Shown: piece after piece, positions 1,079-24,988 of the stretch
Numbering within the stretch: the first letter of the stretch is position 1
Layout: each line of letters begins with the position of its first letter
Assembly: GCA_050116155.1 (NCBI GenBank)
Contig: JASFPE010000002.1
Span: forward strand, 1-42,184
Direction of reading: 5' to 3'
From: Desulfobacterales bacterium
GTDB taxonomy: Bacteria; Desulfobacterota; Desulfobacteria; Desulfobacterales; JAHEIW01
Length of the DNA stretch: 42,184 nucleotides
Made by a program: the position numbers and the translations under genes
The notes under the pieces: generated by a model
What the model saw: only the letters and a program-made list of their open reading frames with translations
Told to the model about the DNA's origin: nothing
The model's database searches: none

Positions 1079-2416
1079 TTACTTAGCGTTCTTTCGCATT
1101 TCGAAGCGTTTTATCTTCTTGTGAAGGGTTACCCGATTGATATCCAGCATTTTAGCTGCCCTGGTTACATTCCAGTCGCATTCTTCCAAAATCCGATGGA
1201 TATAATGCTTTTCCATGTCACGAAGTGACATGGGCCTTGAAGGCATTGAAGGAGACGTTTGCAGAAACGAAAAATCTTGCATGTTCAATGTTCTCGATTT
1301 TGAAAGAACAACGGCTCTTTCAATGGCATTTTCCAATTCTCTGACATTTCCCGGCCATTCATAGGCCACTAAACGCTCGATGGTATCACGGGTAATATGA
1401 TCGACGCGTTTGGTGGTTTCATGACTGTATTTTTCGAGAAAGTGCTCGACCAGCAAGGGGATATCTTCTTTTTTCTCTCTCAGCGGAGGGATATCGATGG
1501 TGATGACGTTGATGCGATAGAAGAAATCCTCCCGGAAATTGCCGGCCGCAATCTCCTGCTCTAGATCCCGTCGTGTCGCAGAGATGAGCCTAAAATCTAC
1601 CGCGACAGGCTGACAGTTCCCGAGGCGACTAATTTTCTTTTCATCCAGGACACGCAGGAGATCAATTTGCATCTTGGCGCTAATTTCTCCAATTTCATCA
1701 AGAAACAGCGTGCCGCCGGATACGACTTCTAAAAAACCCTTGCGGGAATGGGTTGCACCTGTGAAGGCGCCTTTTTGATATCCGAAAAGTTCACTTTCCA
1801 GGAGCGAATCCGGGATTGCCCCGCAATTAATGGGAATAAAAGGAAAATGAGATCTTTTGCTCTTTGCGTGAATGGCTTTGGCCACCAATTCTTTGCCCGT
1901 ACCGGTTTCGCCCTTCAGAAGAATGGAGGAGTCACTCTGGGCCACTTCTGGGATAAGGTCAAAGATTTTTTCCATCGCCGGGCTCTGTCCGATAATATCG
2001 TCGAAACGCGTGATTTTCTCGAGACGACCCTTGAGATAATTGTATTCTGATGAAAGTTTAACCTGCTGGGCAACCTTTTCCATCACCAGGGATAGATGAT
2101 CCGGTTTGAACGGCTTGAGCAAATAATCGCTGGCACCCAGTTTCATGGCTTTCACGGCGGTTTCAATGGATCCGTAGGCGGTGATAATAATCACGATGGT
2201 TTCCGGATATTCTTCCTTTACGGTTTCCAACAACTCGATGCCATTCATTTCAGGCATTCTGATGTCCACAAATAAAACGTCAAAAGGCATTTTTTCTAAT
2301 CGCTGTAAAGCCTCAAAACCCGAAGATGCTTTTGCAACCGTATGACCGATTTTCGTGAACCAATGGAAAAGGGATTCCCTAACGATTTTTTCATCGTCGA
2401 CAATCATGATATTCAT
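1079..2416 (-). CDS. NtrC-family sigma54-dependent response regulator (REC + AAA+ + Fis-type HTH)
   Basis: Receiver motifs IMIVDDE, FVDIRMPEMNG, ITAYG, LLKPF. Walker A is GETGTGKE. GAFTGA is present (YQKGAFTGA). C-terminal HTH is NVTRAAKMLDINRVTLHKKIK. ATG at 2416 follows GGAGGC. The longer ORF-track start (2527) would overlap the upstream kinase gene. Confidence 0.93.
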   Translation of the reverse strand: MNIMIVDDEKIVRESLFHWFTKIGHTVAKASSGFEALQRLEKMPFDVLFVDIRMPEMNGIELLETVKEEYPETIVIIITAYGSIETAVKAMKLGASDYLLKPFKPDHLSLVMEKVAQQVKLSSEYNYLKGRLEKITRFDDIIGQSPAMEKIFDLIPEVAQSDSSILLKGETGTGKELVAKAIHAKSKRSHFPFIPINCGAIPDSLLESELFGYQKGAFTGATHSRKGFLEVVSGGTLFLDEIGEISAKMQIDLLRVLDEKKISRLGNCQPVAVDFRLISATRRDLEQEIAAGNFREDFFYRINVITIDIPPLREKKEDIPLLVEHFLEKYSHETTKRVDHITRDTIERLVAYEWPGNVRELENAIERAVVLSKSRTLNMQDFSFLQTSPSMPSRPMSLRDMEKHYIHRILEECDWNVTRAAKMLDINRVTLHKKIKRFEMRKNAK

Positions 2417-2417
2417 T

Positions 2418-3986
2418 TTAGCCTCCATGGTCTTCCCCCGGATTATTGCCCGAAATGGATAGGTAAGGGAATTTAAGGAAAAATGAACTCCCTTTGCCCA
2501 CTTCACTTTCAACCCGGATGTCTCCACTATGATTTTTTACAATGCCATAAACGATGGACAAACCCAGGCCTGTCCCCTGGCCGGCTTCTTTGGTGGTAAA
2601 AAAGGGATCAAAAATATGGTTCAGATTTTCCTCATGAATCCCCGATCCGGTATCCCGGATTTCTACCAGCACGTGTTTCTGGTCGGGTTCCAATTCGGAC
2701 ACCACCCGCAAATCTCCGCCCTCCGGCATCGCCTCCATGGCATTGAAAATCAGATTGAGCAGGCATTGCTCCAAGCGGTTTGTATCTCCTCGGACCCATA
2801 AAGCCCCCGGGTAGAGATGGGTTGTTAATTTGATACTTTGGAGTTCCAGCTTGTGGTGGGTCAGGGCGATAACGGCTTCCAGAACTTCATTGAGATTGAT
2901 GCGCTTGTATTCCAGAGCGGTTTCCCGGGAAAATGAAAGCAGCCCGGAAACAATGTTTCCGCAGCGTTCCAATTCCGGGGTCATCATTGATAAATATTGC
3001 TTAAATTCTTCCAACTCGTTTGATGTGGGTTTGCCTTTGGCTAAAATGTCCTCCATCAGTTGGGAAAATGTCAATAATCCCTGGATGGGATTGTTGATCT
3101 CATGGACACAGCTGGCAACGAGTTTTCCCAGAGAAATCATGCGATCTTCCTGGATCAGATGATTAAAGTCCTGTTTTAACTTCTGAACCTTCTCTTCCCA
3201 GCGGGAGGACAATTCCTTGGTAATGTCCCGCTGAATCTCTAGGACCCGTACCACTTCTCCGGCCGAATTTTTAATCGGATAGGTAACAATTTCAAAATAC
3301 CCGGATTGGCTGCTGGAAACAGGCGCATCGATGATCTCATGCGCGGATTCACCGGTTCGCAAGGTTTTTACCATGGGGCATTCATATTCCGGTTTATGGT
3401 TTAAACAAGGCGAATCGAAACCGTGAAAAGCCTTGTAACAATAAGCTCCAATGACTTCCGTTCGGATCTTGCCGGTTGTCTTTATATAAGCCTCATTGGC
3501 TTCAAAGATCGTGAAATCCGTATTGATTATGACGATGGGTTCATCGGTCTGTTGGATGAGAAATTCAGAAATCATCTTTTCGCGGTTTATCTGCTGCTCT
3601 GCTGATTTCAATTGCTGGTCAATCAAGAACAGAGATCTTAACAATCTGCCGATGTTGTGTTCTACGATGCCGACTGTTTTAGGCCGGAGTTTTATGAGTT
3701 CCAGGAGGACTTCTTTGCTATTGGTGAGTTCGACAATGCCGTCAAGATCTTTGATCTTAAAAAGATCCTTGAAGTTATCCGTGGTATAAATGTCCATTTG
3801 CTTGGCCATCAGGAGACCTTCAGCCGCGGGATTAATGTCACAAACCCCAACAAGATTAACATTCAAATAGGGAAAGGATTCTTTTTGTAGAAGTTGCAGG
3901 AAAAACTTACAGGCCCTGCCTCCGCCGACAATCGCTATATTTAATGGCAATTTTTTGTCGTAACTCTTATTTGAGGTAAACGGCAT
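2418..3986 (-). CDS. Sensor histidine kinase: N-terminal Rossmann-like domain + Cys-motif PAS + HisKA/HATPase
   Basis: N-terminus NIAIVGGGRACKFF...LVGVCDINP is a beta-Gly-rich-alpha-beta-Asp dinucleotide-fold pattern. The PAS region carries CYKAFHGFDSPCLNHKPEYEC. H-box is CVHEINNPIQG. N/G boxes are LLNLIFNAMEAM, IRDTGSGI and GTGLGLSI. The stop lies 1 nt before the regulator start. Confidence 0.9.
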   Translation of the reverse strand: MPFTSNKSYDKKLPLNIAIVGGGRACKFFLQLLQKESFPYLNVNLVGVCDINPAAEGLLMAKQMDIYTTDNFKDLFKIKDLDGIVELTNSKEVLLELIKLRPKTVGIVEHNIGRLLRSLFLIDQQLKSAEQQINREKMISEFLIQQTDEPIVIINTDFTIFEANEAYIKTTGKIRTEVIGAYCYKAFHGFDSPCLNHKPEYECPMVKTLRTGESAHEIIDAPVSSSQSGYFEIVTYPIKNSAGEVVRVLEIQRDITKELSSRWEEKVQKLKQDFNHLIQEDRMISLGKLVASCVHEINNPIQGLLTFSQLMEDILAKGKPTSNELEEFKQYLSMMTPELERCGNIVSGLLSFSRETALEYKRINLNEVLEAVIALTHHKLELQSIKLTTHLYPGALWVRGDTNRLEQCLLNLIFNAMEAMPEGGDLRVVSELEPDQKHVLVEIRDTGSGIHEENLNHIFDPFFTTKEAGQGTGLGLSIVYGIVKNHSGDIRVESEVGKGSSFFLKFPYLSISGNNPGEDHGG

Positions 3987-4148
3987 AATTCCACCCTCCC
4001 AACTCAGTTAATTTCATTGAGAGATTTAAATCCGAGGCCGATCCATTATTTATCAATAAATCATTCATAACAAAAGTATTATTTCAACATCTCGGAAGTT
4101 CTGAAATTTATTCAAATCATGCAGCTTGGGTGGATTCGGAGGGAGCTG

Positions 4149-4267
4149 GCGCAACGTTGTAAAAATGTTGCAATTAATGTTGCGCAACACGTACTGGTTA
4201 CATAACTATTAATTATTAAATGATTTATTGAAAATTTCGGATTGAAATATGTTGCATGCGTTGCAGG
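4149..4267. promoter_or_regulatory. Candidate enhancer (UAS) sites for the sigma54 activator
   Basis: Clustered TGTTGC/GCAAC motifs: GCGCAACGTTG (4149-4159), ATGTTGCAA (4165-4173), the perfect palindrome GTTGCGCAAC (4179-4188) and ATGTTGCATGCGTTGCAGG (4249-4267). They sit about 90-200 bp upstream of the -24/-12 promoter, separated from it by AT-rich DNA. Confidence 0.4.
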
Positions 4268-4353
4268 TTTTGGCTTGATAGGTGTATCGACGGTGCATTG
4301 ATTTTTTGAATATTTACTGTAATTACAGTTAAATATTAAAAAAATTAAATTAA

Positions 4354-4369
4354 TGGCACAGTCCATGCT
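4354..4369 (+). promoter_or_regulatory. Sigma54 (-24/-12) promoter for cluster A
   Basis: TGGCACagtccaTGCT has GG (4355-4356) and GC (4367-4368) separated by exactly 10 nt, one mismatch to TGGCAC-N5-TTGC. It faces the + strand operon and a sigma54 activator is encoded divergently. Confidence 0.7.
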
Positions 4370-4568: not shown

Positions 4569-5009
4569 TTGTACTCGGAAATTGAAAGAAAAAAAATACT
4601 TATCGTTGATGATGAATTGGATATACGGATTTTCCTGTGTAATTTGCTGGGTAACTGTGGTTACGACCCCATCGATGCCGGTGATAAAGACGAGGGGATG
4701 CAAAGGGCCGTGAAAGAGAAGCCGGACCTGATCATTCTTGATGTAACGATGCCCAGGGAAAGCGGCATTCAAATGTATCGAGAGCTCAAAGCGCATGAAG
4801 ACCTCAAGAATGTTCCGGTGATTATGGTGTCAGCCATCGACAAGAAAACCTTTTCATTTTATCAAAAATTTCAGGGCACGCCTCGGAGTAAAGGTATTCC
4901 TGATCCTGGTGCCTATTTAGAGAAACCGTTGGAGGCCGAGGAGCTCATCAAACTGGTCCGCTCATTGACCAAAACCGATGATTGCCCTTTGGCAAAGGAT
5001 GATGATTGA
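4569..5009 (+). CDS. Single-domain CheY-like response regulator (REC only)
   Basis: Motifs ILIVDDELD, LIILDVTMP, MVSA and YLEKP. The TTG start at 4569 lies 4 nt after GGAGGA (4559-4564). There is no in-frame ATG before the receiver fold. Confidence 0.85.
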   Translation: MYSEIERKKILIVDDELDIRIFLCNLLGNCGYDPIDAGDKDEGMQRAVKEKPDLIILDVTMPRESGIQMYRELKAHEDLKNVPVIMVSAIDKKTFSFYQKFQGTPRSKGIPDPGAYLEKPLEAEELIKLVRSLTKTDDCPLAKDDD

Positions 5010-5038
5010 GCACTATCGAAAGAGGGTGGTTTGGACCG

Positions 5039-10706: not shown

Positions 10707-10720
10707 AAAGGGGTTAGCAG

Positions 10721-11143
10721 ATGAGCGAGTTTGAACCGACAATTGTGGCATTTTTTTGCAACTGGTGTACGTATACGGCGGCAGATTTGGCGGGTACGTC
10801 GCGGCTGTCCTATCCTCCCAATGTAAAAAGCATTCGGGTGATGTGCACCGGGATGGTGGATCCCCAATATGTCATCAAAGCCTTTCTGGAAGGGGCTGAC
10901 GGGGTATTGATCAGCGGATGCCATCCGGGTGATTGTCATTATATCAACGGGAATTATAAGGCCCGTAGACGGATAAAGCTGCTCAAAGAGATTCTTCCGC
11001 AATTCGGTTTTGATCAACAACGGTTGCGATTAACCTGGATCGGTGCCAGCGACGGCATCCAGTTTGCCGAGGTCATGCGCGATTTGGTTGCCCAAATCAA
11101 AGCTTTGGGACCCAGCCAGGCCAGGTTGAAGATGGTGATCTAA
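10721..11143 (+). CDS. mvhD: MvhD-like (methyl-viologen-reducing hydrogenase delta subunit family) [2Fe-2S] protein
   Basis: IVAFFCNWCTYTAADLAG...IRVMCTGMVDP...GVLISGCHPGDCHY is the MvhD Cys pattern. An RBS (AAAGGGG) lies upstream. Confidence 0.9.
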   Translation: MSEFEPTIVAFFCNWCTYTAADLAGTSRLSYPPNVKSIRVMCTGMVDPQYVIKAFLEGADGVLISGCHPGDCHYINGNYKARRRIKLLKEILPQFGFDQQRLRLTWIGASDGIQFAEVMRDLVAQIKALGPSQARLKMVI

Positions 11144-11144
11144 T

Positions 11145-11228
11145 TTGAAACTTGATACTCGAAACTCGGATTTAACACTAAGTCAGAAAATTATATCAAC
11201 CTCCATTTTCAAATTTCCAGTTTCGAGT
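11145..11228. repeat. Intergenic short tandem / inverted repeats
   Basis: A degenerate heptamer array ACTTGAT ACTCGAA ACTCGGA lies at 11150-11170. ACTCGAAACT (11157-11166) is the reverse complement of AGTTTCGAGT (11219-11228). AATTTGAAA (11142-11150) pairs with TTTCAAATT (11208-11216). Confidence 0.4.
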
Positions 11229-11248
11229 TACAAAAAACGGAGGGGCTC

Positions 11249-12391
11249 ATGGCGATTACGGCGAAACTTGATGTAAAAGATAAAGACCTTTTAGGATCTT
11301 TGCGGGGCTTTTTTAAGAACCTCCTTGGAACTGGAGAAATCCAATCGCTGCTGGTCCCCCAGCATTTGCCGATGAAAGACATGATCATGCCGACGCTGGT
11401 GACGGACCCGAATCAGCTGAATGGGGTAGATCCTCTATCACCGGCCTTTCCGATGAACGCCGCCAAGATTGTTTCACGGCTCACCCGCAAACCCATGGGC
11501 GCGAAGGTTGCGGCCCTGTTGCGACCGTGCGAGATTAGGGCTTTTGTTGAACTCGTGAAACTGAAGCAGGGACGCACGGACGAAGTGATTTTGATTGGAA
11601 TGGACTGCCTGGGAGCCTTCCAAAACAAAGATTATTTTCAGCTGGTGGCGCAGAACGCCGCAGAATCGACGGTCGTGTTCTATGAAAGCGTGTTGCGCGG
11701 CAAAAACACGGAGATTGGCGGCCTTGATCTGGCGCCGGCCTGCAGGGCCTGTGAATATCCGGTGGCTGAAAATGCTGATATTCTCATCGGCCTATACGGT
11801 ATGGATATCAACCAATCACTACTGATTCAGACTCAAACTGAGGCTGGTGATCATATCCTAAAGCAGATGAATCTTTCCGCCACAGATGTGCCCCGCGCCC
11901 GCCAGGATGCCATTGATGCCTTAATAGCACAGCGCACAAAGTACAGGGATGACATGTTTGCTCGGACTCGCGAGGCTACCGAAAATTTGGAAAAATTATC
12001 CACCTATTTTGCCACCTGTGTCAACTGCTACAACTGTCGAGTGGCCTGTCCGGTCTGTTACTGTAAGGAGTGCGTTTTTGTCACCGATGTATTCAACCAT
12101 GATCCGTCTCAGTATTTGCGGTGGGCCAACCGCAAAGGGATCATTAAAATGCCGACGGACACGCTCTTCTACCATCTTACCCGATTGGCACATATGAGCA
12201 CGGCCTGTGTGGGCTGCGGCCAGTGCTCCAATGCCTGTCCGAATGATATTCCGGTCATGGAATTATTCCGTACGATCGCCCAAAGCACGCAGCAGGCGTT
12301 TGACTATGAGGCCGGGAGAAATGTCGATGAAAATCCTCCGCTGTCGGTTTTTCGAGAGGAAGAATTTGCCGAAGTTGTGGGGATAAACTGA
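11249..12391 (+). CDS. Fe-S protein: FrhB/FdhB-like N-terminal region + C-terminal 2x[4Fe-4S] ferredoxin domain
   Basis: LRPCEIRAFVELVKLKQ and IGMDCLG resemble the FrhB-family PCqi segment. The C-terminus has CVNCYNCRVACPVCYC and CVGCGQCSNACP. RBS is GGAGGGG. The FrhB assignment is by resemblance only. Confidence 0.6.
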   Translation: MAITAKLDVKDKDLLGSLRGFFKNLLGTGEIQSLLVPQHLPMKDMIMPTLVTDPNQLNGVDPLSPAFPMNAAKIVSRLTRKPMGAKVAALLRPCEIRAFVELVKLKQGRTDEVILIGMDCLGAFQNKDYFQLVAQNAAESTVVFYESVLRGKNTEIGGLDLAPACRACEYPVAENADILIGLYGMDINQSLLIQTQTEAGDHILKQMNLSATDVPRARQDAIDALIAQRTKYRDDMFARTREATENLEKLSTYFATCVNCYNCRVACPVCYCKECVFVTDVFNHDPSQYLRWANRKGIIKMPTDTLFYHLTRLAHMSTACVGCGQCSNACPNDIPVMELFRTIAQSTQQAFDYEAGRNVDENPPLSVFREEEFAEVVGIN

Positions 12392-12540
12392 TAAAAATTT
12401 AGGGTTTCGCCCCGATTGGAATAATGGAATAATGGGCATGAAGTGAAGCTTTAGCGCTATGGTGGAATGATGGTTTTAACGGATTTAAATCAAATAATTA
12501 TTCAAAATGACGAACCGCAAAACTGGCCAAGGAGGAACCT

Positions 12541-13848
12541 ATGTCTACAGATGTCATCAAACTAGGCGGTAAAAAGAAGAGCACCTTCATGGATAAGGTT
12601 ATGGAAATTCTGCCTGAAGGAGGAAATCTGAACCTTTGTCTAACTTGCGGCGCCTGCTCTTCGGGCTGTCCGGCTACTGGATTGGAAGGAATGGATCCGC
12701 GAAAATTTTTGCGCATGGCCGCACTGGGATTAGACGATGAAATTTTGAAATCGGACTGGGCCTGGATGTGCACCATGTGCCAGCGCTGCATCTATGTGTG
12801 TCCGATGAAAATCGATATCCCCCTGTTGGTTTACCATGCGCGTGCCAGTTGGCCGCGGGATGAGCGTCCCAAGGGCATACTGGGATCCTGCGATATGGCC
12901 TTGAGAAATGATAGCTGCAGTGCCATGGGTGCTTCTCCGGAGGATTTTACCTTCGTGGTGGAAGATGTGCTGGAAGAGTACCAGGAGGCCCAGCCTGAAT
13001 TTGCGGACATGCAGGCGCCCATCGATAAACAGGGTGCTGAATTTTTTTTAAACCAGAACTCCCGGGAGCCGGTGACAGAACCCGATGAAATGGTTCCGTT
13101 GTGGAAGATTTTGCATATTGTGGGGGCGGATTGGACTTATGGCAGCAAAGGCTGGGGCGGAGAAAATTATTGTATGTTTCTGGCCGACAGTGAGGCCTGG
13201 GAACATATTGTCCGAACCACCGCAAACCAAGCCGATGATCTGGGGTGTAAGATATTTCTCAATACCGAGTGAGGGCACGTGACTTTCTCAGTCCTGGCAG
13301 GACTGAAAAGATTCAACATTGCCCACAAATTCGAGGTCAAAAACATTTATGAGTACTATGCCAAATGGATACGGGAAGGCAAATTGAAGGTCAACTCGGA
13401 CTGGAACAAAGATTTGAAGATAAAGTTTACGGTTCAGGATCCGTGTCAAATCGTGCGTAAATCCTATGGTGATCCGATCGCCGAAGATCTTCGCTATGTG
13501 GTCAAGACGGTTGTGGGAGAGGAAAACTTTATCGAAATGCACCCCAACCGGTCCAACAATTATTGCTGTGGCGGCGGCGGCGGCTTTCTACAGTCCGGGT
13601 ATAAGGAGGCCCGTCTGGAATTCGGTCGCTTGAAAGACAGTCAAATTCAAACGACCGGAGCGGACTATTGCATTGCCGGTTGCCACAACTGCCATGCCCA
13701 GATTCATGAACTCAGCGAGCACTACGGCGGTGGTTATGGGGTGGTGCACCTGTGGACCGTCATTTGCCTGGCGTTGGGTATACTGGGTGAAAACGAACGG
13801 GAATATTTAAGGGAGGATCTTAAGGAAGTGGCCGTATATGGTGCCTAA
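12541..13848 (+). CDS. DsrK/HdrD-like (GlpC-type, CCG-domain) Fe-S oxidoreductase, selenocysteine-containing (in-frame UGA at 13270-13272)
   Basis: The ORF-track entries 12541..13272 and 13279..13848 are in the same frame, separated only by TGA GGG CAC. The joined product reads ...CKIFLNTE-U-GHVTFSV.... Together they make one complete protein: 2x CxxCxxCxxxCP (CLTCGACSSGCP, CTMCQRCIYVCP) plus CCG domains (QDPCQIV, NYCCGGGGG, GCHNCH). Neither half is a complete domain set alone. Confidence 0.8.
13289..13305 (+). promoter_or_regulatory. SECIS-like hairpin downstream of UGA 13270
   Basis: CAGTCC (13289-13294) TGGCA GGACTG (13300-13305), extendable with flanking U-A pairs. The stem starts 17 nt 3' of the UGA and the apical loop contains GG. 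Confidence 0.6.
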
Positions 13849-13898: not shown

Positions 13899-16800
13899 AT
13901 GATAAGAAAAATTGGCAAAGCACTCGTCGTAGGGGCAGGTATTAGCGGTATTCGTGCGGCATTGGACTTAGCTGAATATGGTTATGGCGTCACGTTGATT
14001 GACCGGTCGCCCCATATCGGGGGCATACTCAGTCAACTCGATTATCAGTTTCCCACCGATCGTTGCGGCATGTGTAAAATGCTTCCCCTGGTCAATCGGG
14101 ATGCAGGCTCTCAATATTGCCTGCGCAAAGGTTTGTTTCACGAAAACATCGATATCCTTCTGTCCACGGACCTTGTCGCCGTTGAAGGCGAGGCCGGCCA
14201 ATTTCAGGTAACGCTCAAGCAGCATCCGAACTGGGTGGATTCGGATCGATGCACGGGATGCGGTGATTGCGTGGATGCCTGTCCGGTAGAGGTTCCGGAT
14301 GATTTTAATGCCGGTCTCAGCAAACACAAGGCCATCTATTTACCGGTTCCGCATGCCATTCCGAATCCATATGTGATTGATTTTGCGGCCTGTACCCGCT
14401 GTGGCGCTTGCGTTGAGGTCTGTCCTACCGGTGCGATTCGATTGCCTGAAGAGGAACGCAGAAAATTTCATATTCTCGTCGTCGACGACGAACTTGTCGT
14501 TCGCGATTCTCTTAAAGAATGGCTTAAAGAGGAAGGCTTTTCAATAGACATGGCCGCATCCGGCCCGGAGGCGCTGGATCAACTGACGAAACAAATGTAT
14601 CAATTGATGCTGCTGGATATTAAGATGCCCGGTATGGATGGGGTGGAGGTCCTTCAAAAAGCCAAGGAGAGTTTTCCGGATTTAAATGTGATCATGATGA
14701 CCGCTTATGCGACAGTCGAAACTGCCGTTGAAGCCATGAAGATCGGTGCTTTAGACTATCTGGTAAAGCCATTTAATCCCGAAGCTTTAGTGCCGATGGT
14801 CTTGCGAACATATCAGGATTTTACTGTGACCGAAGGACGACAGCTCGATGTTGGCGCACTGGTGCTTTGTGGCGGAACCCGCTTTTTTGACCCGACCAGC
14901 GGAAAAAACACCTTCGGCTATAAGATATATCCCAACGTTGTCACCAGCCTGGAATTTGAACGTATGTTAAGCGGTACTGGCCCCACGGCGGGACGCTTGG
15001 TGCGTCCTTTGGATGGAAAGCCGGTTCAACGAATTGCCTGGATCCAATGTGTGGGGTCTCGAGATTTACAAATGGAGGCCGACTTTTGCTCCAACATATG
15101 CTGCATGTATGCCATTAAGGAGGCGCTTGTGGCCAAAGAAAAGATTGATCCGGATCTGGAGGCCAGCATTTTTTATATGGATATGCGGACCTTCGACAAA
15201 TCATTTCAACGATATCGGGACCAAGCCGAAACGATTCATGGTATCCGCTTTGAAAGAGCGCGGGTTCACTCGGTGCTGCAAGATGCCAGCAGTGGTGATA
15301 TCATGGTCCGCAGCGTGGATATTTCAGGAAAACCCCGAGAATCGCCCTTTGACATGGTGATTCTCACCGTTGGCCAGCGGCCGGCCGAAGGCATCTCGGA
15401 GCTGGCCGAGATGTTAGGTATCGAACAAAATTCATGGGGATTCGGCCAAACCGAGGCCTTTTCCTTGACCCGCACCAATCAGAGTGGGGTTTTGTTGGGA
15501 GGTTCTTTTAGCGGCCTTAAAGACATTGGTGATTCGGTTATCCAGGCATCGGCAGCCGCCTTAAGCGCCTCGCGCGTGATCCACTCCGCCGGAGGAAGCC
15601 TGGCTTTAGAGCCATCGCCGGTCGTTCCCCCTGCCGATGTCATGCGGGAGATTCCGAAAATCCTTATCGTTGTTTGTACCTGTGGGGAGAGGCTGGCGCA
15701 GTGGGTCGATCCCCAAAAAGTCACTCGACAACTCACCAGCGATCCGGCGGTAAATCGAATAGAATTTTTAGAACAGGTCTGTACAGCCGCCGGCTGGGAG
15801 AACCTTGTGGAGCTGGTGAATACGAGTAAACCCAATCGTCTTCTGATTGGTGCCTGCCTTCCCTATGTCTATAAACGTAAACTGCGGGAGATTGGCCAAA
15901 AGGTGGGGTTGGATCCTACCCTCATGGAGGTGGTGGATCTGAATTCGGAATGGGGAATGGGGAAGGCGGAATTAAAGGATAAACACTTCATTTTTCGCAA
16001 TGTTATCTCTAAATTGGAAATGGATACGGCAAAACTGAAGAGGGTTAATCCGGAGCCTGTTCCCACAATTCCGATCATTCAAAAAGCGTTGGTTATCGGT
16101 GGCGGCATTGCCGGAATGACGGCGGCCCTGGCCATTGCCGATCATGGATTCGAGGTGGATTTAGTGGAACAGAGCGAACATCTGGGGGGAAATCTTACCT
16201 GGCTGCAACGAACCCTGGACGGGCATGACCCCAGAGCGTTGCTGGAGGAAACCAGGGCATCCGTAGAAAAGCATAACCAGATTCGTGTGCATGCACAATC
16301 CCATGTGATTCATGCTTTCGGCGAAGTCGGTAACTTTCATACGACCATTGAAGGACCCCAGAGCGCGGTGCACACACTGAATCATGGTGTCACCATTTTA
16401 GCTACCGGGGGGACAGAGGCGGATAGCGCATCCTATGGATATGGAACCAGCCCGGCCATTATCACCCAGAAAGAAATAGAACAAAAGCTATCAGATAATA
16501 CCGTAGATCCCGAGCAACTGAATTCGGTGGTCATGATTCAGTGTGTTGATTGCCGTGAGGAACCTCGCAATTATTGCAGCCGCGTTTGCTGTGCAAACGC
16601 CTTGAAACAGGCTCTTTATCTCAAGGAACACAATCCTGCAATCACGATTTATGTTCTTTACCGGGACCTGATGTCCTATGGGTTTAATGAAACCTATTAC
16701 ACTCGGGCCCGGCAAGCAAATGTGATGTTTATTCAGTATGGCATTGATGAAAAGCCCCAGGTTCAAGCCGCAGGAGAAGGATTAAAAGTGACGGTGGCCG

Positions 16801-17324
16801 AGCCGATCCTGGGGCAGCAGCTGCAAATTGAAGCTGATCTCGTGGTATTAGCCACCGGCATCGTTCCGAATCTCTCGCCAGAGTTAGTGGAAATGTTTGG
16901 TGCCGCCCTCGATCAGGACGGCTTTTTCCTGGAGGCTGAATCCAAGTGGCGTCCGGTTGACTCACTGAAAGAGGGCGTATTTGCCTGCGGCCTGGCCCTT
17001 TCCCCTCGCAACATTCCCGAATCGATTGCCACCGCTGAGGCCGCCGCGGCAAGAGCCTTGAGGATACTTTCCCGCGAACGCTTGCGGTCGGGAAAAGTAG
17101 TGGCCACGGTCCACCACAGCCTGTGCAGTCTGTGTGAAAGATGCATTGATGCGTGTCCATACGGTGCTCGCGCGCTGGATTTCGATCATGAAAAAGTACT
17201 GGTAAATCCGGTAAGGTGTCAGGGCTGCGGCTGCTGTGCGGCAGTCTGCCCCAACAGCGCATCCGTCTTGGAGGGTTTTCAGGAACAGCAAATGTTTGAG
17301 GTGATTGACGCGGCCATCGGATGA
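13899..17324 (+). CDS. Tandem HdrA-like flavoprotein with an inserted CheY-like receiver (REC) domain
   Basis: Module 1 has VVGAGISGIRAALD, FPTDRCGMC, CTGCGDCVDACP and CTRCGACVEVCP. Residues about 189-305 form a complete receiver (ILVVDDE, LMLLDIKMPGMDG, IMMTAY, YLVKPF). HdrA then resumes (LEFERM, QCVGSRD, CSNICCMYA). Module 2 has VIGGGIAGMTAA, QCVDCRE, CSRVCCANA and a C-terminal CSLCERCIDACP, CQGCGCCAAVCP. Confidence 0.9.
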   Translation: MIRKIGKALVVGAGISGIRAALDLAEYGYGVTLIDRSPHIGGILSQLDYQFPTDRCGMCKMLPLVNRDAGSQYCLRKGLFHENIDILLSTDLVAVEGEAGQFQVTLKQHPNWVDSDRCTGCGDCVDACPVEVPDDFNAGLSKHKAIYLPVPHAIPNPYVIDFAACTRCGACVEVCPTGAIRLPEEERRKFHILVVDDELVVRDSLKEWLKEEGFSIDMAASGPEALDQLTKQMYQLMLLDIKMPGMDGVEVLQKAKESFPDLNVIMMTAYATVETAVEAMKIGALDYLVKPFNPEALVPMVLRTYQDFTVTEGRQLDVGALVLCGGTRFFDPTSGKNTFGYKIYPNVVTSLEFERMLSGTGPTAGRLVRPLDGKPVQRIAWIQCVGSRDLQMEADFCSNICCMYAIKEALVAKEKIDPDLEASIFYMDMRTFDKSFQRYRDQAETIHGIRFERARVHSVLQDASSGDIMVRSVDISGKPRESPFDMVILTVGQRPAEGISELAEMLGIEQNSWGFGQTEAFSLTRTNQSGVLLGGSFSGLKDIGDSVIQASAAALSASRVIHSAGGSLALEPSPVVPPADVMREIPKILIVVCTCGERLAQWVDPQKVTRQLTSDPAVNRIEFLEQVCTAAGWENLVELVNTSKPNRLLIGACLPYVYKRKLREIGQKVGLDPTLMEVVDLNSEWGMGKAELKDKHFIFRNVISKLEMDTAKLKRVNPEPVPTIPIIQKALVIGGGIAGMTAALAIADHGFEVDLVEQSEHLGGNLTWLQRTLDGHDPRALLEETRASVEKHNQIRVHAQSHVIHAFGEVGNFHTTIEGPQSAVHTLNHGVTILATGGTEADSASYGYGTSPAIITQKEIEQKLSDNTVDPEQLNSVVMIQCVDCREEPRNYCSRVCCANALKQALYLKEHNPAITIYVLYRDLMSYGFNETYYTRARQANVMFIQYGIDEKPQVQAAGEGLKVTVAEPILGQQLQIEADLVVLATGIVPNLSPELVEMFGAALDQDGFFLEAESKWRPVDSLKEGVFACGLALSPRNIPESIATAEAAAARALRILSRERLRSGKVVATVHHSLCSLCERCIDACPYGARALDFDHEKVLVNPVRCQGCGCCAAVCPNSASVLEGFQEQQMFEVIDAAIG

Positions 17325-19630
17325 CGGTCTTTAGAATTGGAAAAATGTTCAAACTTATTAGAAATATTCGACGCAGGCTGGTTACCAAACTCATTATAAC
17401 TGTTGGCCTGACCCTGCTCATTACCATTTCAACCTGGGCCTACTTCAATATCAGTTATCAGGAAAAAAAGCTCATGGAGAATATTGTGGTGGGAACCGAT
17501 CGGTTAACCAATACCATCAAGCTCGGCGCTCATTATGCCATGATGCTGAATTCACGGGACGATATCAACCAGATCATCAATAACATCGGCAAGCAAAAAG
17601 AGATTGAAACCATCCGTATTTATAATAAAGAAGGCCAGATAAAATTTTCAAACCAACCATCAGAACTCGAAACAACCACCAATATAAAAGATGAAGCCTG
17701 CTATATCTGTCACCGGACGGACCCTCCCCAGTCTGAGCTCGGATTGACGGAACGCACACGGATATTTGCTTCGCCCCGGGGTTATCGTCTACTGGGGATC
17801 ATCAGCCCCATTTGTAACGAACCGGGTTGTTCGACAGATGCCTGTCATGTCCATCCTCAGGACAAAAAGATACTCGGCGCCCTGGATGTGGTCGTTTCTC
17901 TGGAAGATACGGATAAAGAAATCTTTATGGCTGAAAAAGGAGTCATTGGTTTAGCAGGAGGCATATTCCTGGTCACATCCGCAATTATCTTTCTTTTCCA
18001 ATTGAGGTTTGTCAATAAACCGATCCGCAAATTAATCGACGGAACTCGACGTATCGCAAAGGGCATGTATCCTAGCAGAGTAGATATTGACCAGGATGAT
18101 GAAATGGGACAGCTGGCGGCTGCTATCAACCAAATGAGTGAAAAGATTGCCGAGGACCAAGGGAAGTTGAACGAGCAAAGGGATGAGTATCAAACTCTGT
18201 TCGAACGGGTTCCCTGTCTGATTACCGTTCAGGATAGGAATTATAAGCTATTGCGTTATAATCGCGACTTCGCAAAAAGATTTGATCCTCAGCCCGGCGA
18301 ATATTGCTATGAAGCGTATAAAGGACGAGATGAGAAATGTGTAAACTGCCCGGTGGAGCGGACATTTAAAGATGGTCAAACTCATTATGGTGAAGAGACA
18401 GGCGTAAACAGAGATGGTACTCCGGTTCACTGGATTCTGCGAACATCTCCGATTAAAAATGCCAAGGGAGATATTGTGGCGGCCATAGAGATGAGCTTGG
18501 ATATAACGCATCGCAAACAGCTCGAAGATAAACTGGAAAAATCTGAAAAGAAGTACCATGAAATCTTCAACAATATTCCGAATCCGGTGTTTGTGTTAGA
18601 TAGCGACTCCCTCGAAATCATCGATTGCAATGAGAGCGTTCAAGCCGTCTATGGTTATTCCAAGGATGAGATTCTGAATAAGTCATTTATGGATTTGTTT
18701 TTGGAAGAAGAAAAAGATCAATATATTTCGAAAATTAAGTCATCCGCCATTTTGACCCGAGCTAAACATGTAAACCATGTGGGAATGCCTCTTTATGTAA
18801 ATATCAGGGTCTCGCCGGCCGAGTATCCGGGCAAAAAGGTGCTTCTGGTTACCACCAGCGATATTACCAAACGGCTTGAAGCCGAGCAGCAGCTGATCCA
18901 GGCCAGCAAAATGGCCACTTTAGGAGAGATGGCCACCGGCATTGCCCATGAACTCAACCAACCCCTTTCGGTCATTAAAACCGCAAGTAGCTTCTGTATA
19001 AAAAAATTAGATGTAAATGGTAAAATCGATAATGAACTCATGGCTACCATGATTGTTAAGGTGGACAGCAATGTGGATCGAGCTACCCGAATCATCAACC
19101 ATATGCGTGAATTTGCCCGCAAGCCCGATATTGGCCTGGGGAAGGTCCAGGTCAACGAAGTCCTGGAAAAAGCTTTTGAAATATTCAGCCAGCAGCTAAA
19201 GCTCAGGGGGATCGAAGTCGTATGGGACATTGAAAAAGAATTGCCCAAAATCAAAGCCGACCCCGGCCGATTGGAGCAGGTATTTATCAACCTTCTGTTA
19301 AATGCCAGAGATGCCATCGAAGAGCAATGGGGCCCCAGAGAAACCGCTAAGGCTGATAAACAAATTATTCTCAAAACAAGGCGCGAAGGCAAATCAATTT
19401 GGTGTGAAATCTGTGATACGGGGAAAGGTGTTCCGAAAGCAATGGCCGACAAGATCTTTGAACCTTTTTTCACCACCAAAGAAGTCGGCAAGGGAACCGG
19501 CCTGGGTCTTTCCATCAGCTATGGGATTGTGCAAGACTGTGGCGGAAGCATTCAGGTTGTCCCCCATCAACCTCACGGGGCCTGTTTTATCATAAAATTC
19601 CCCATACCGGAAAATAAAAATGGAAAATAA
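17321..19630 (+). CDS. Transmembrane sensor histidine kinase: extracytoplasmic domain with CXXCH motifs, HAMP, two PAS regions, HisKA/HATPase
   Basis: TM1 is LIITVGLTLLITISTWAYF. The sensor loop carries CYICH and CSTDACH. TM2 is GVIGLAGGIFLVTSAIIFLF and a HAMP domain follows. The PAS region carries CYEAYKGRDEKCVNCPV. H-box is IAHELNQP; HATPase boxes are LLLNARDA, DTGKGV and GTGLGLSI. The ATG overlaps the HdrA-REC stop (ATGA at 17321-17324). Confidence 0.92.
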   Translation: MTVFRIGKMFKLIRNIRRRLVTKLIITVGLTLLITISTWAYFNISYQEKKLMENIVVGTDRLTNTIKLGAHYAMMLNSRDDINQIINNIGKQKEIETIRIYNKEGQIKFSNQPSELETTTNIKDEACYICHRTDPPQSELGLTERTRIFASPRGYRLLGIISPICNEPGCSTDACHVHPQDKKILGALDVVVSLEDTDKEIFMAEKGVIGLAGGIFLVTSAIIFLFQLRFVNKPIRKLIDGTRRIAKGMYPSRVDIDQDDEMGQLAAAINQMSEKIAEDQGKLNEQRDEYQTLFERVPCLITVQDRNYKLLRYNRDFAKRFDPQPGEYCYEAYKGRDEKCVNCPVERTFKDGQTHYGEETGVNRDGTPVHWILRTSPIKNAKGDIVAAIEMSLDITHRKQLEDKLEKSEKKYHEIFNNIPNPVFVLDSDSLEIIDCNESVQAVYGYSKDEILNKSFMDLFLEEEKDQYISKIKSSAILTRAKHVNHVGMPLYVNIRVSPAEYPGKKVLLVTTSDITKRLEAEQQLIQASKMATLGEMATGIAHELNQPLSVIKTASSFCIKKLDVNGKIDNELMATMIVKVDSNVDRATRIINHMREFARKPDIGLGKVQVNEVLEKAFEIFSQQLKLRGIEVVWDIEKELPKIKADPGRLEQVFINLLLNARDAIEEQWGPRETAKADKQIILKTRREGKSIWCEICDTGKGVPKAMADKIFEPFFTTKEVGKGTGLGLSISYGIVQDCGGSIQVVPHQPHGACFIIKFPIPENKNGK

Positions 19631-20777
19631 AATACTACTTGTTGATGACGAAAAAGATGTCCGTGACGTGCTTAACCTGTCTCTTACGGATTTGGGATAT
19701 GATGTGTTTGAAGCGGAAAATGGCGATGAAGCATTGCACATTTTTAAAAAAGCCAATCCTTCCATCGTACTTACCGATATAAAAATGCCGGGCATGGATG
19801 GTATTGAACTTCTTCAGAGAGTTAAACACGAAAATCCTGACGCCGAAGTCATCATGATTACTGGGCACGGCGCGATGGACCTGGCTATCATGAGCCTTAA
19901 GTATCAAGCTGCTGATTTCATCACCAAACCGATCAATGTTGATGTGCTGGAGGTTGCTCTGAAAAAAGTGCGTGACAAGATTATAATGAAACAAAAATTA
20001 AAGGAGTATACCGAAAATCTTGAAAGACTTGTGCGAGAAAAAACAGAACTCCAAAGTCACCTGTCTTCATTAGGATTAATGATTGGTTCCATATCGCATG
20101 GAATAAAGGGTCTGTTAACCGGTTTAGATGGGGGGATGTATTTGCTGGATTCCGGTTTTGCAAAAGACAATCAGGAGCGGATCAAGGAGGGCTGGGAAGT
20201 TGTGAAATTGATGGTGGATCGTATCCGCAAAATGATCGATGATATCCTATTTTATGCCAAAGAAAGAGATTTGAAATGGGAACGGGTCAATGTTCTGAAT
20301 TTTGCCACTGGGGTGGCAACCGGCATTGAAACAAAAATGAAAGAACAAGATATTGAGTTCATAAAAGATTTCGACACAAGGGCTGCAAAATTTGAAGTTG
20401 ATGCAGGCTATGTCCATTCTGCTTTGATCAATATTCTGGAAAATGCCGTGGACGCCTGTATCAGAGACAATACAAAAAAATCTCATAAAATTGTCTTCAG
20501 CATCAGGCAGGATAAAAAAAATATAACATTTGATGTGTTTGACAACGGCATTGGTATGGACCGCGAGACTATTGACAAACTATTTACACCTTTTTTTTCT
20601 TCAAAGGGTGAAAAAGGAACCGGGTTGGGTCTCTTTATTTCCAACAAAATCATTGAGCAGCACGGCGGCAATATCAAGGTCAAATCGACTGAAGGCGAAG
20701 GAACCCTTTTCAGTATAAAAATTCCAAAAATACTGCCGAAATCCGTCAGGGTCACCAAAGATAAAGCGGCAGTTTAA
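19620..20777 (+). CDS. Hybrid protein: N-terminal receiver (REC) + histidine kinase core
   Basis: Receiver motifs ILLVDDEKD, IVLTDIKMPGMDG, MITGHG and FITKP. H-box-like SISHGIKGLLTGL. HATPase boxes ILENAVDA, DNGIGM and GTGLGLFI. It overlaps the upstream kinase gene by 11 nt. Confidence 0.9.
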   Translation: MENKILLVDDEKDVRDVLNLSLTDLGYDVFEAENGDEALHIFKKANPSIVLTDIKMPGMDGIELLQRVKHENPDAEVIMITGHGAMDLAIMSLKYQAADFITKPINVDVLEVALKKVRDKIIMKQKLKEYTENLERLVREKTELQSHLSSLGLMIGSISHGIKGLLTGLDGGMYLLDSGFAKDNQERIKEGWEVVKLMVDRIRKMIDDILFYAKERDLKWERVNVLNFATGVATGIETKMKEQDIEFIKDFDTRAAKFEVDAGYVHSALINILENAVDACIRDNTKKSHKIVFSIRQDKKNITFDVFDNGIGMDRETIDKLFTPFFSSKGEKGTGLGLFISNKIIEQHGGNIKVKSTEGEGTLFSIKIPKILPKSVRVTKDKAAV

Positions 20778-21934: not shown

Positions 21935-24900
21935 TTAACTGAAAGTGATCTCAAACGGCGCCTCATCGAACAAACACGATTGTAGCTGGGCCATAATCTG
22001 GCCGGTATCAAATCCTTTCAAATGAATGGCCCCGGAACGGCATGATGCCACGCATAAACCGCAGCCTTTGCACAACGCTGGTTGAATTTCCGCTTTTCCG
22101 GTTTTTTCATTGAATTTCGGTGCCGAATAGGGACAGATCTCCGTGCATACACCACAATTGCTGCAGAAATTCTGATCGACCAGCGCTACCATCCCGCTCA
22201 CCGAAATTTCAAGGGCAGACAACACTGTTATCGCTCTGGAAGCAGCTGCTTGCGCCTGGGCAATGGATTCTTCAAGGGGTTTGGGAGCATGCGCTATTCC
22301 GCATATGAACACCCCGTCAGTGGCAAAATCATTGGGTCGCAGTTTGACATGAGCTTCGGCAAAAAACCCGTCATCGTTTTGAGGTACTTTGTACAGTTGC
22401 GCCAGGCGATTATTTTTTTGCGGGATCATGGCACTTGCCAGGATCAGAAGATCACTGTGGATGACCATCTGTCTTTGGAGCACACGATCAGAAAATTGGA
22501 TTTCCAGAGCCTCTTTGCCGGTAAGGACGGAGATCCCTTTATCGTTTTGATATCTGATAAATTTGATTCCCTGGGTGCGCGCTTCTCGATAAAGATCCTC
22601 GCGCAGGCCGTATGATCTCATGTCCCGGTACAAAACAAAAATATTCATAGCGGGATTTTGCGATTTGAGGCTCAAAGCACTTTTGATGGATTGGGTACAG
22701 CAAACTTTCGAACAATACGGGCGCTGCGGTATGCGTGAGCCCACACATTGGACAAATACCGCCGTACGACAGGAATCAAAGGGATCTTTGTTCTTTAATT
22801 TTTTTTGGAGTTCCAGGCCGGTGAGCACACGCTGATCCTGAGCGTACAAAAAATCTTGCGGCTTGAATTCATCTGCGCCGGAGGCAATCAACGTGACACC
22901 ATGTTCCAGGACTTTGGGCTTGCCGTTGTTTTGGATGGTTGTTTTAAAATTACCGACAAATCCCTCGACGTTGTCCGCGTGAGCATTAAAGAAAATTTCG
23001 ATGTTTTGATCAGATTGGACGTCATCGATTAATTTTTGCAGAAATGGACCGATGGGCTCTGCCTGCCAGGTGTCATTGAGATACCGTGCCTGGCCCCCGA
23101 GCTCACCGTTTTTTTCGACCAGGTGGGTTTTGTATCCCTGGGCGGCTAGCGTCTTGGCTGCAATCATTCCCGCCACGCCGCCGCCGATGACCAAGGCAGC
23201 CTGGTTGATTTTCATCACCGGCTCCGTCAGGGGTTCATGCAGCGCGACTTTTGCGACCGCCATTCGAACGAGGTCCTTGGCTTTTTCCGTCGCTTTTTCC
23301 ATATCGTCTTTGTGAACCCATGAACACTGGTTGCGGATATTGGCCATTTCGAAGAGATATTTATTCAGACCTCCGTTGATCAGTGTTTCCTGGAAAAGCG
23401 GTTCGTGAGTTTTCGGTGTGCAGGCCGATACGACCACCCGGTTGAGCCGGTGCTCTTTTATGATGTCTGAAATTTGACCCTGGGTGTCTTGAGAGCAACT
23501 GAACAGATTTTGCGCCGCGTATGCCACATTCGGCAGGGTTTTGGCAAATTCAACGACTGCCGGCACATCGACAAATCCGGCTATATTGGTTCCGCAGCAG
23601 CATATAAAAACGCCGATTCTCGGGGGTTCTCCTTTGATATCGATTTCCGGGGGCAGCTCTTTGGTTTGGGTAAGGGTCCATCTGGCATTATATAGCGTGC
23701 TTCCAACCTTGCCGGCTGCCGCACTTGCATCGATCACCGAGGTCGGAATATCTTTGGGCTCCTGAAAGGCGCCACACACGTAGATACCGGATCGCGAGCT
23801 CTGGACCGGGTCAAAGCTGCCGGTCTTTGCGAAATGATATGGAGTCAATTCGATATTCAGTTTTTTTGCCAGATCTATGGCCTGATCCCCAACGCCTAAA
23901 CCCACGGACAACACCACCATATCAAATGCTTCGCCAACGCTCCTGCCATTTTCGTCGACATAGCGGATAAGGTGCTTTCCGTCTTCATCCATGGGCTCCA
24001 CATGGGTGATGCGCGATTTGATGAAGCGAACCCCCAGATCCTGTTGGGCTTTGTTATAATAGCGTTCAAAGTCCTTTCCAAAGGTTCGAATATCGATATA
24101 AAAAATGGCCGCATCCAAACCGTTTTTGCTATGCTCTTTGGCCAAAATGGCTTCCTTGACCGCATAGGTGCAACAAACCCCGGAACAGTATCCTCTGGCT
24201 CCGATATGATTGTCTCTGGAGCCGACACATTGCAGCCAGGCAATCTTTTCAGGTTCGGATTTATCCGACGGTCTGAGCAGATGCCCGCCATACGGTCCGG
24301 AGGCGGAGAGGATTCTTTCAAATTCCAGGCTGGTGACAATATCGGCCGAATTTGAATACCCGAAAGTATCGTACGTGTATGGGTTATATGCTCCGCTGCC
24401 ACACGATAATATAATGGCGCCCACATTTATTGATATTTCTTTTTTTTGGTCCTCAAAGTTGATGGCTTTGGTTGGACAAAATTTTTCACAGCCTCTGCAT
24501 TTACCTCGGATGAGATAAATGCATTGCGCTGGATCGATGCAATACTTCAGCGGAACGGCCTGGGCATACTGCACGTAAACCGCCTTGCGTTTGGCCAGTC
24601 CCGCGTCATATGCATTGGAAACTTTTTTGGGGCATTTCTCTGCACAGGCACCGCAGGCGATGCATTTTTCCACGTCCACGTAGCGCGGGTGCTGGGTCAG
24701 GTTGACCTCGAAATTACCGGCTTCGCCGGAAATGTTTTCGATTTCGGAAAGGGTCAGGAGTTCGATATTGATGTGCCGGCCGACCTCGACCAGTTTGGGT
24801 GAGATAATTCACATGGCACAGTCGTTGGTGGGGAATGTTTTATCAAGCTGCGACATCATTCCCCCGATGGAACTCGAACTTTCAACCAGGTAGACATAGT

Positions 24901-24988
24901 AACCGGAATCAGCAAGATCCAGGGATGCCTGCATCCCGGCGATACCGCCCCCCACCACCATTACCGCACCGACTTCTTTTGTTGACAT
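21935..24988 (-). CDS. hdrA: Tandem HdrA flavoprotein, selenocysteine-containing (in-frame UGA at 24809-24811)
   Basis: ORF-track entries 24809..24994 and 21935..24679 are in one frame. My translation across the gap gives ...[73 protein letters not shown]. This is continuous HdrA sequence with U at the position where the two other HdrA-type paralogs in this window have Cys (DCSAC, RCGMC). ATG 24988 follows GGAG. A second HdrA module is present ([33 protein letters not shown]). Confidence 0.88.
24776..24793 (-). promoter_or_regulatory. SECIS-like hairpin downstream of UGA 24811-24809
   Basis: The minus-strand RNA reads UGA-N15-CUGGUCG AGGU CGGCCGG. This is a 7-bp stem (two G-U pairs) with an AGGU apical loop. 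Confidence 0.6.

Follow-up and report, generated by a model that had tools for sequence, protein, structure and literature searches.

A CheY-like receiver domain inserted into a fused HdrA-type flavoprotein of Desulfobacterales and related bacteria

A receiver domain within a fused double HdrA

HdrA-type flavoproteins are the site at which electrons are split in flavin-based electron bifurcation, a process central to energy coupling in anaerobes and, to our knowledge and as far as the searched literature shows, one for which no post-translational regulation of the HdrA-type enzyme is known. Here we describe a 42,184-nucleotide stretch of DNA (hereafter, the window) from the forward strand of contig JASFPE010000002.1 of a Desulfobacterales bacterium (GCA_050116155.1), in which an uninterrupted open reading frame (ORF) of 1141 amino acids (13899..17324, plus strand) encodes a fused double HdrA with a CheY-like receiver domain located inside the enzyme, denoted REC-HdrA below. 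A preliminary description of the window, made from the sequence alone, had placed a complete receiver at residues ~189-305 of this protein, and both profile searches and structure prediction bear this out. The receiver occupies residues 189-305 exactly (14463..14813, plus strand) and is matched by the Pfam Response_reg profile (PF00072) across residues 192-300 with an E-value of 8e-32 and a score of 110.1 bits, compared with a gathering threshold of 30.2 bits; the match spans profile positions 1-109 of 111. Searching the PDB by sequence also retrieved the receivers of Spo0F, NtrC1, FixJ and CheY, and among the NCBIfam models the best matches were to the receivers of AtoC, ZraR and NtrC, with scores far under the equivalog cut-offs.

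All canonical positions of the phosphorylation pocket were said to be present, and inspection of the codons verified each of them. The acidic pair consists of D196 (GAC, 14484-14486) and D197 (GAC, 14487-14489) in the motif VVDDE, the phospho-acceptor position is D240 (GAT, 14616-14618) within LMLLDIKMPGMDG, T268 (ACC, 14700-14702) lies in IMMTAY, and the switch residue Y287 (TAT, 14757-14759) and K290 (AAG, 14766-14768) both belong to YLVKPF. In an alignment of 137 family members, each of these positions is retained in at least 135 sequences: D196 and D240 in all 137, K290 and Y287 in 136, and D197 and T268 in 135. The reading of the window protein as a pseudo-receiver with a degenerate pocket is ruled out by the intact D196, D197, D240, T268, Y287 and K290. 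Moreover, the receiver region ranks second in conservation within the protein, with a mean pairwise identity of 71% among 86 full-length canonical orthologues, against 41-76% elsewhere.

An AlphaFold2 model of REC-HdrA built from 120 homologues (mean predicted local distance difference test score, pLDDT, 75.9; predicted template modelling score 0.75) contains a receiver fold of five alternating strands and helices at residues 191-309, with pLDDT values of 85-89. The DSSP assignment on the model gives strands at 191-195, 215-219, 236-240, 263-268 and 286-289 and helices at 199-211, 222-231, 248-258, 273-282 and 294-309. In the same model the linkers at the two ends are short, ~5-8 residues between the ferredoxin domain and strand beta1 and ~4 residues between helix alpha5 and the FAD-domain strand 314-318 (FAD, flavin adenine dinucleotide). 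The insert is a bona fide receiver, displaying every CheY-like family character that could be examined, and it is very probably a functional phospho-acceptor.

The surrounding protein was identified by a phmmer search against the PDB, which aligned four collinear segments of REC-HdrA with the methanogen HdrA (5ODC chain A; E=1e-137). Residues 7-185 correspond to residues 145-313 of the 5ODC HdrA, that is, the first part of the FAD domain together with the inserted 2x[4Fe-4S] ferredoxin domain, and residues 315-509 correspond to 318-511, the remaining FAD domain; further on, residues 584-815 correspond to 2-232 (the N-terminal domain and the beginning of a second FAD domain) and residues 967-1137 to 474-647 (the end of the second FAD domain along with the ferredoxin domain at the C terminus). 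A Foldseek search with the REC-HdrA model likewise matched HdrA chains (8rvy, 5odc and 7bkd). The inserted ferredoxin domain of module 1 (residues ~111-186; 14229..14456, plus strand), recognized by Fer4/Fer4_9 matches at residues 112-181 and aligned to 5ODC residues ~238-313, is the sole domain of its kind in REC-HdrA. The Pfam scan gave no Fer4 matches between residues 729 and 1069, indicating that module 2 is devoid of an inserted ferredoxin domain and, consequently, that REC-HdrA would have a single low-potential exit.

As judged from these alignments, a single REC-HdrA chain comprises two HdrA modules whose domain losses complement each other. Module 1 retains the FAD fold, the inserted ferredoxin domain, the receiver and C59, the equivalent of Cys197, and is devoid of the N- and C-terminal domains; module 2 possesses the N- and C-terminal domains and has neither the inserted ferredoxin domain nor a Cys at the 197 position. 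The cluster motif CxGxRD...CSxxCC is present in both modules, with C384/C397/C401/C402 and C882/C893/C897/C898 invariant. Chadwick et al. proposed that fused HdrAs act as their 'own heterodimeric partner' (PMC9012536), and the partitioning of the N-terminal cluster domain and the Cys197-type partner residue between the two modules of REC-HdrA matches this complementarity, except that the module order is reversed in comparison with the fused or tandem HdrA 'self-heterodimers' of anaerobic methanotrophic archaea. The features shared with HdrA of the methanogen complexes MvhAGD-HdrABC, Fdh-Hdr-Fmd and Hdr-Vhu-Fwd (5ODC, 7BKB, 8RVU) include the thioredoxin-reductase-like FAD domain with its GxGxxG motif, CxGSRD...CSxxCC in both modules, the inserted 2x[4Fe-4S] ferredoxin domain, the N-terminal domain, the ferredoxin domain at the C terminus, the Cys197 equivalent and the proximity of genes for HdrB, HdrC and MvhD. 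In contrast to these enzymes, REC-HdrA is bacterial, contains two modules per chain and carries a 115-residue receiver. The NCBIfam HdrA and HdrA2 models are not reached at the equivalog level (NF040770, 695 bits against a cut-off of 1100; NF041778, 533 against 1400), and, because these scores are under the cut-offs, we assign REC-HdrA by sequence to an HdrA-like paralogue family rather than to the methanogen coenzyme B-coenzyme M enzyme. Electron bifurcation by a REC-HdrA complex is assumed here by homology only.

The receiver is inserted between the equivalents of 5ODC residues 313 and 318, where the inserted ferredoxin domain rejoins the FAD fold, and after it the chain resumes the FAD fold at ..LDVGALVLCGG. 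The preliminary description had located the insertion exactly at this junction, in agreement with both the 5ODC mapping and the alignment with an insert-free paralogue in the window (see below). Published structures place the inserted ferredoxin domain on the low-potential route by which electrons leave the bifurcating FAD for ferredoxin or polyferredoxin, and describe electron transfer in Hdr enzymes as conformationally gated (PMC9012536; PMC13518236). The same domain is a known place of domain acquisition, as exemplified by HdrL of Desulfobacterium autotrophicum, an HdrA with an NfnB/GltD-like insert (PMC2702500). In the HdrL encoded in the window, the NfnB-like module is located between HdrA-equivalent residues ~291 and 297, ~20 residues before the receiver site; unlike HdrL, REC-HdrA acquired a signalling receiver rather than a redox domain, and did so at the end of the ferredoxin domain.

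Response regulators whose output is an enzyme include the methylesterase CheB, the diguanylate cyclases PleD and WspR, and the phosphodiesterase RpfG, in which the receiver is N-terminal and joined to the enzyme through a linker. REC-HdrA resembles this type (CheB, PleD, RpfG) in that its canonical receiver shares a polypeptide with an enzyme and the putative cognate kinase genes adjoin, and by analogy allosteric control might be expected. It differs in that the receiver is internal (189-305 of 1141 residues), tethered at both ends and situated in a loop of the output fold, and in that the output is a multi-cluster flavin redox enzyme, a kind of output of which the searched literature gave no description. 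Receivers that occur, as in REC-HdrA, as insertions within another domain are rare.

The operon, its kinases and the insert-free paralogue

The gene for REC-HdrA belongs to a plus-strand operon headed by a stand-alone receiver, REC_s (4569..5009; PF00072, NCBIfam DVU0259/DivK-like family). According to Pfam, REC_s is followed by genes for an HdrD-like protein (5006-7333), HdrL (7296-10706), MvhD (10721-11143), an FrhB-like Fe-S protein (11249-12391), an HdrC-like protein (12541-13272) and an HdrB-like protein (13279-13848), all on the plus strand; HdrL is an HdrA with a ~480-residue NfnB/GltD-like NAD(P)H module, and its TTG start overlaps the HdrD-like gene. Immediately downstream of REC-HdrA lie two histidine kinase genes. 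HK1 (17321..19630, plus strand), whose start overlaps the hdrA stop codon (ATGA), is a membrane sensor histidine kinase in which two hydrophobic, putative transmembrane segments surround an extracytoplasmic domain of 160 amino acids and are followed by HAMP, two PAS, HisKA and HATPase domains, the HisKA phospho-site being His543 (18947-18949). REC-HK2 (19620..20777, plus strand), which overlaps the end of HK1 by 11 nucleotides, combines a receiver (Asp53) with a DHp (His160) and HATPase kinase core. The order of the operon is kept in nearly all related loci with enough flanking sequence, down to ~50% identity, and the Hdr synteny extends to ~100 genomes. The placement of the HdrB/C genes varies: in some relatives hdrC-hdrB lie upstream of REC-HdrA, as in the window (12541-13848), and in others an HdrB2-like gene lies between REC-HdrA and HK1 (e.g., loci L004, L011-L013 and L027-L034 of those compared).

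The extracytoplasmic domain of HK1 contains CXXCH (17699-17713, residues 127-131) and CX4CH (17828-17848, residues 170-176), both present in 38 of 38 full-length HK1 orthologues, and it is a reasonable guess from these motifs that the domain is a haem-c-type sensor of redox state or of a ligand. The best NCBIfam match of both HK1 and HK2 is AtoS, far under the equivalog cut-off. Together with the AtoC/ZraR/NtrC affinity of the REC-HdrA receiver, this recalls the AtoS/AtoC and NtrB/NtrC systems; unlike in those systems, the receiver of REC-HdrA is linked to neither an AAA+ nor a DNA-binding output, and Pfam scans found no DNA-binding output encoded in the HK1/HK2 module.

Upstream of the operon, on the minus strand (1079..3986), lies a divergent pair made up of a PAS histidine kinase gene (2418-3986) and the gene for an NtrC-type sigma-54 activator (1079-2527). 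The receiver of the NtrC-type regulator is, among those encoded in the window, the nearest to that of REC-HdrA (48.6% identity). The intergenic region contains a sigma-54 (-24/-12)-like promoter, TGGCACAGTCCATGCT (4354..4369, plus strand), with one mismatch to the consensus and ~200 nucleotides upstream of REC_s; such sites are not enriched across the whole window (27 against 24.5 expected), so that this one is only suggestive. Palindromic GTTGCA/GTTGCG repeats at ~4150-4270 are candidate binding sites that could serve the divergent NtrC-type activator. This neighbouring NtrC-type sigma-54 system probably governs transcription of the operon as a separate layer of control. The preliminary description had argued for control of the redox enzyme itself rather than of transcription; the first half of this proposal may hold, and the second is too strong, with an NtrC-type regulator, its own kinase and a -24/-12-like promoter adjoining the operon.

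The window also encodes an insert-free fused-HdrA paralogue (21935..24988, minus strand). It aligns straight across the junction, with ~124 residues fewer than REC-HdrA there, and thus supplies the no-insert control that had been claimed for the window, with the proviso that it forms a single ORF only if an in-frame TGA (24809-24811) is read through. This codon (..TNDCAM-TGA-IISP..) is aligned with Cys59 of REC-HdrA and with Cys/Sec197 of the methanogen HdrA; because of this alignment with Cys59 and U197, it probably encodes selenocysteine. If the TGA is not read through, the ORF shortens to 914 amino acids (21935..24679), and the gene is single only under the selenocysteine reading. A search downstream of the TGA for a fold resembling a selenocysteine insertion sequence gave nothing better than shuffled sequence (z=-0.04). 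At the head of the paralogue operon, on the minus strand, are genes for a PAS kinase (28404-29504) and a stand-alone receiver (27782-28252). A related arrangement is found in two WOR-3 loci (L150, ~4861-8081; L153, ~959-4059), where a kinase, a REC-kinase and two single receivers precede an insert-free fused HdrA. By Rosetta-stone reasoning, receivers may act in trans on HdrA complexes where the two are unfused.

Distribution of the fusion and covariation of pocket and kinases

The fusion is not rare. Among the best 120 database homologues, all 120 contain PF00072 at 66-83% identity and full coverage, on independent contigs from NCBI, JGI, ENA and Logan, and a search of 1.84 billion representative proteins yielded ~14 full-length or partial clusters (at the 50% identity level) with a receiver at the same site. 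A first genome scan recovered the whole junction in 54 species-level genomes, including Desulfobacterales metagenome-assembled genomes (MAGs), Desulfosarcina, Desulfobacula and Desulfobacterium sp. N47; a second scan, which started from the closest relative without the insert, further retrieved Syntrophobacterales/Syntrophobacteraceae and a group of Desulfovibrionaceae. Taken together, the two scans count some 100 species-level genomes with the fusion, from Desulfobacterales and Syntrophobacterales, and the search for domain architectures and their taxonomic spread that the preliminary description had proposed reveals a family spread through sulfate reducers and syntrophs. Of 129 aligned loci, more than 100, some of them on complete MAG chromosomes, have an insert at this position, and isolates are represented in the clade with degenerate pockets described below; 13 relatives have no insert. 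HdrA4 of D. autotrophicum HRM2 was not recovered in either of the two genome scans.

This large conserved family is already present in public databases under automatic names, with entries such as MBU3950310.1 and MEE4266108.1 labelled 'response regulator' or 'heterodisulfide reductase subunit A', and there is no dedicated NCBIfam model for it. As the preliminary description had supposed, the fusion appears to be uncharacterised: we found no paper describing it in the searched full-text literature, most subscription journals being outside that search, and the papers on D. autotrophicum, D. multivorans, D. gigas, hypersaline mats and HdrA evolution contain no description of a receiver in HdrA. 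Figure 4 of the D. autotrophicum study draws response-regulator, histidine-kinase and CheY-like genes at an hdr locus and is silent on a receiver inside HdrA (PMC2702500).

To compare pocket states, the HdrA orthologues of the 129 loci were aligned and compared at six diagnostic positions. All orthologues from Desulfobacterales and Syntrophobacterales, at 48-84% identity, read D-D-D-T-Y-K there. In contrast, the 17 orthologues of the Desulfovibrionaceae group have a 116-residue insert at the same site with degenerate pockets (SPDTK, DPSGH, DPDGH, GTDGR, EAGGT, DKGAK and others). Represented in this group are Solidesulfovibrio alcoholivorans DSM 5433 (L131), Solidesulfovibrio sp. DCME (L129), Desulfovibrio sp. 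7SRBS1 and Desulfobaculum sp. SPO524, as well as members of Pseudodesulfovibrio, Desulfolutivibrio and Oceanidesulfovibrio. Pseudo-receivers are receiver folds without the phospho-acceptor pocket, and it is these Desulfovibrionaceae-type orthologues (L129, L131, L143, L155) that resemble them, unlike the window protein and its Desulfobacterales and Syntrophobacterales orthologues. In the degenerate clade the receiver is the least conserved region of the protein (44%), except for helix alpha5 and the linker motif FVPWLDKLYMRL. The pocket is also lost in two further proteins, P0134 and P0136.

The degenerate loci fall within L127-L159 (e.g., L143, L155 and L159), with the HdrA gene at ~10001-13420 of each locus. 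They are without HK1, REC-HK2 and REC_s, a short HdrA-like gene replaces HdrL, and the divergent pair of a kinase and an NtrC-type gene is kept.

Co-occurrence of the neighbouring genes with the state of the pocket was counted only in loci with at least 8 kb of upstream and at least 6 kb of downstream sequence. An HK1 or REC-HK2 orthologue is present in 38 of the 40 loci with a canonical pocket and in none of the 11 with a degenerate pocket or the 6 without an insert; REC-HK2 alone is present in 37 of 40 and in 0 of the 17 others. The stand-alone receiver REC_s follows the same pattern (27 of 40, 0 of 11 and 0 of 6) and thus tracks the pocket state, whereas the NtrC-type gene does not (25 of 40, 10 of 11 and 1 of 6). 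The co-occurrence of kinases with the canonical pocket has a Fisher p value of 1e-12, calculated without phylogenetic correction. By gene content, then, the HK1/REC-HK2 pair is lost together with the pocket. These counts, in addition to the ATGA overlap between hdrA and HK1, favour the suggestion of the preliminary description that the adjacent kinases are the likely partners of the receiver.

Two proteins of a representative library join receivers to HdrA in other ways. P0135 (1217 amino acids) has three N-terminal receivers followed by HdrA, and P0216 (1011 amino acids) consists of a receiver, a GcvH-like domain and an HdrA-like part. From these layouts it follows that receiver-HdrA fusions arose more than once.

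Possible roles of the receiver

Taking as a starting point the established identity of the domain, its intact and conserved pocket, its insertion site and its co-occurrence with kinases, we infer phosphotransfer to the receiver from an operon-encoded kinase and an effect of this transfer on electron flow. Under this scenario, REC-HdrA would be a response regulator whose output is the redox enzyme that surrounds the receiver. HK1, directly or via REC-HK2, would phosphorylate D240 in an operon-encoded phosphorelay, of which REC_s might be a branch or a sink. Phosphorylation would shift the alpha4-beta5-alpha5 face of the receiver and, because the domain is tethered by very short linkers, the conformational change could be passed to the ferredoxin domain and hence to the low-potential branch. 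The ferredoxin domain would be repositioned or stiffened relative to the FAD, such that low-potential electron flow, or its coupling, is gated or re-tuned. We consider the chances evenly balanced that an operon-encoded phosphorelay to D240 controls the redox enzyme allosterically through its ferredoxin branch. The more specific proposal, that an Asp relay, possibly sensing periplasmic redox state via a putative haem-c-type domain of HK1, directly gates the ferredoxin branch of a bifurcating Hdr-type complex, is more tentative.

Several observations weigh against this scenario. The coupling of the receiver to the ferredoxin and FAD domains is argued from linker lengths in a predicted model, and bifurcation by the complex from homology, the NCBIfam HdrA scores being under their cut-offs. 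The degenerate loci constitute one clade and are not independent, and the association between pocket and kinases may accordingly rest on one or two evolutionary events. Furthermore, this clade retains the 116-residue insert without a working pocket, and therefore part of the role of the domain would be independent of phosphorylation. Finally, given the similarity between the receivers of REC-HdrA and the NtrC-type regulator, the phosphoryl donor could be the divergent PAS kinase (2418-3986) instead of HK1 or REC-HK2. This kinase is less likely to be the sole donor for REC-HdrA, as NtrC-type genes are retained in loci whose HdrA pocket is dead.

Among the alternatives, the one that fares best, although we regard it as unlikely, reverses the direction of the signal. 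The redox or occupancy state of HdrA would alter the gain or loss of phosphate by the receiver and report redox state to the relay, and REC-HdrA would compete with REC-HK2 and REC_s for phosphoryl groups as a phosphate sink. Three receivers (REC_s, REC-HK2 and REC-HdrA) and two kinases are indeed arranged as in a branched relay, REC-HK2 is under the control of a receiver of its own, and an NtrC-type output lies near many of the loci. However, the HK1/HK2 module has no dedicated transcriptional output, and the NtrC-type regulator, paired with a neighbouring kinase of its own, persists in the clade with dead pockets, implying that it is independent of REC-HdrA; moreover, a sink would not need to be inserted at one precise, conserved site of an enzyme.

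The receiver could also be a switch for assembly, a somewhat less probable option, with phosphorylated D240 driving either dimerisation of the receiver through alpha4-beta5-alpha5 or the binding of another subunit (HdrL, HdrBC, MvhD or REC_s) to form an Hdr-like supercomplex. Receivers of the NtrC/AtoC class, to which that of REC-HdrA is similar, act via dimer rearrangement. A fused double HdrA already mimics an HdrA dimer, and further oligomerisation would need some other interface. The formation of very large assemblies by Hdr enzymes (PMC13518236) can be counted in favour of the same idea; the very short linkers at both ends, on the other hand, fit intramolecular coupling at least equally well.

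It is improbable that the receiver is a structural module only, acting at the ferredoxin-domain hinge as a scaffold or spacer, with an Asp pocket that is a relic or binds only a metal and with no phosphorylation taking place. The 17 Desulfovibrionaceae-type orthologues, which retain the insert and FVPWLDKLYMRL despite their degenerate pockets, as well as P0134 and P0136, are what such a role would predict. Yet in the canonical clade the pocket and the switch Tyr are near-invariant down to 48% identity and the receiver is among the most conserved regions, and where the pocket has decayed the receiver has diverged most within the protein and the kinases are absent, which is what one would expect were the pocket functional in all proteins that retain it. 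The joining of a receiver gene to hdrA by misassembly or a frameshift can for practical purposes be dismissed, the same architecture being found at the same site in all of the best 120 homologues and in more than 100 genome loci.

If an Asp relay does gate the ferredoxin branch directly, REC-HdrA would be the first signal-transduction switch inside a bifurcating enzyme, by which energy coupling could be changed within seconds and without new protein synthesis, and the range of response-regulator outputs would extend to multi-cluster redox enzymes. A receiver at the hinge of the ferredoxin-reducing arm, accompanied by its own kinases, offers a testable handle on the control of a bifurcating-type enzyme, and the family, common among sulfate reducers and syntrophs of marine and fresh waters, could reveal whether cells make physiological use of conformational gating in the low-potential branch. 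Natural controls are provided by the clade with dead pockets and no kinases, by the insert-free paralogues and by the independent fusions of receivers to HdrA.

In addition to the two fused-HdrA loci, the window contains several other genes of note. A complete 2-oxoglutarate dehydrogenase set (35563-41409, minus strand), consisting of E1 (973 amino acids), E2 (449 amino acids) and the E3 dihydrolipoamide dehydrogenase (474 amino acids), is unusual for a strict anaerobe of this group. Next to it, a sulfur-related cluster (30739-35541) encodes a DUF1641 protein, a flavoprotein of the sulfide:quinone/flavocytochrome-c type (31428-32681), an Rrf2 regulator, a serine acetyltransferase-like protein and a cysteine synthase-type PALP enzyme. 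Near the beginning of the window lies a gene for an archaemetzincin-type peptidase (Pfam M54; 401-952, minus strand), here in a bacterial context.

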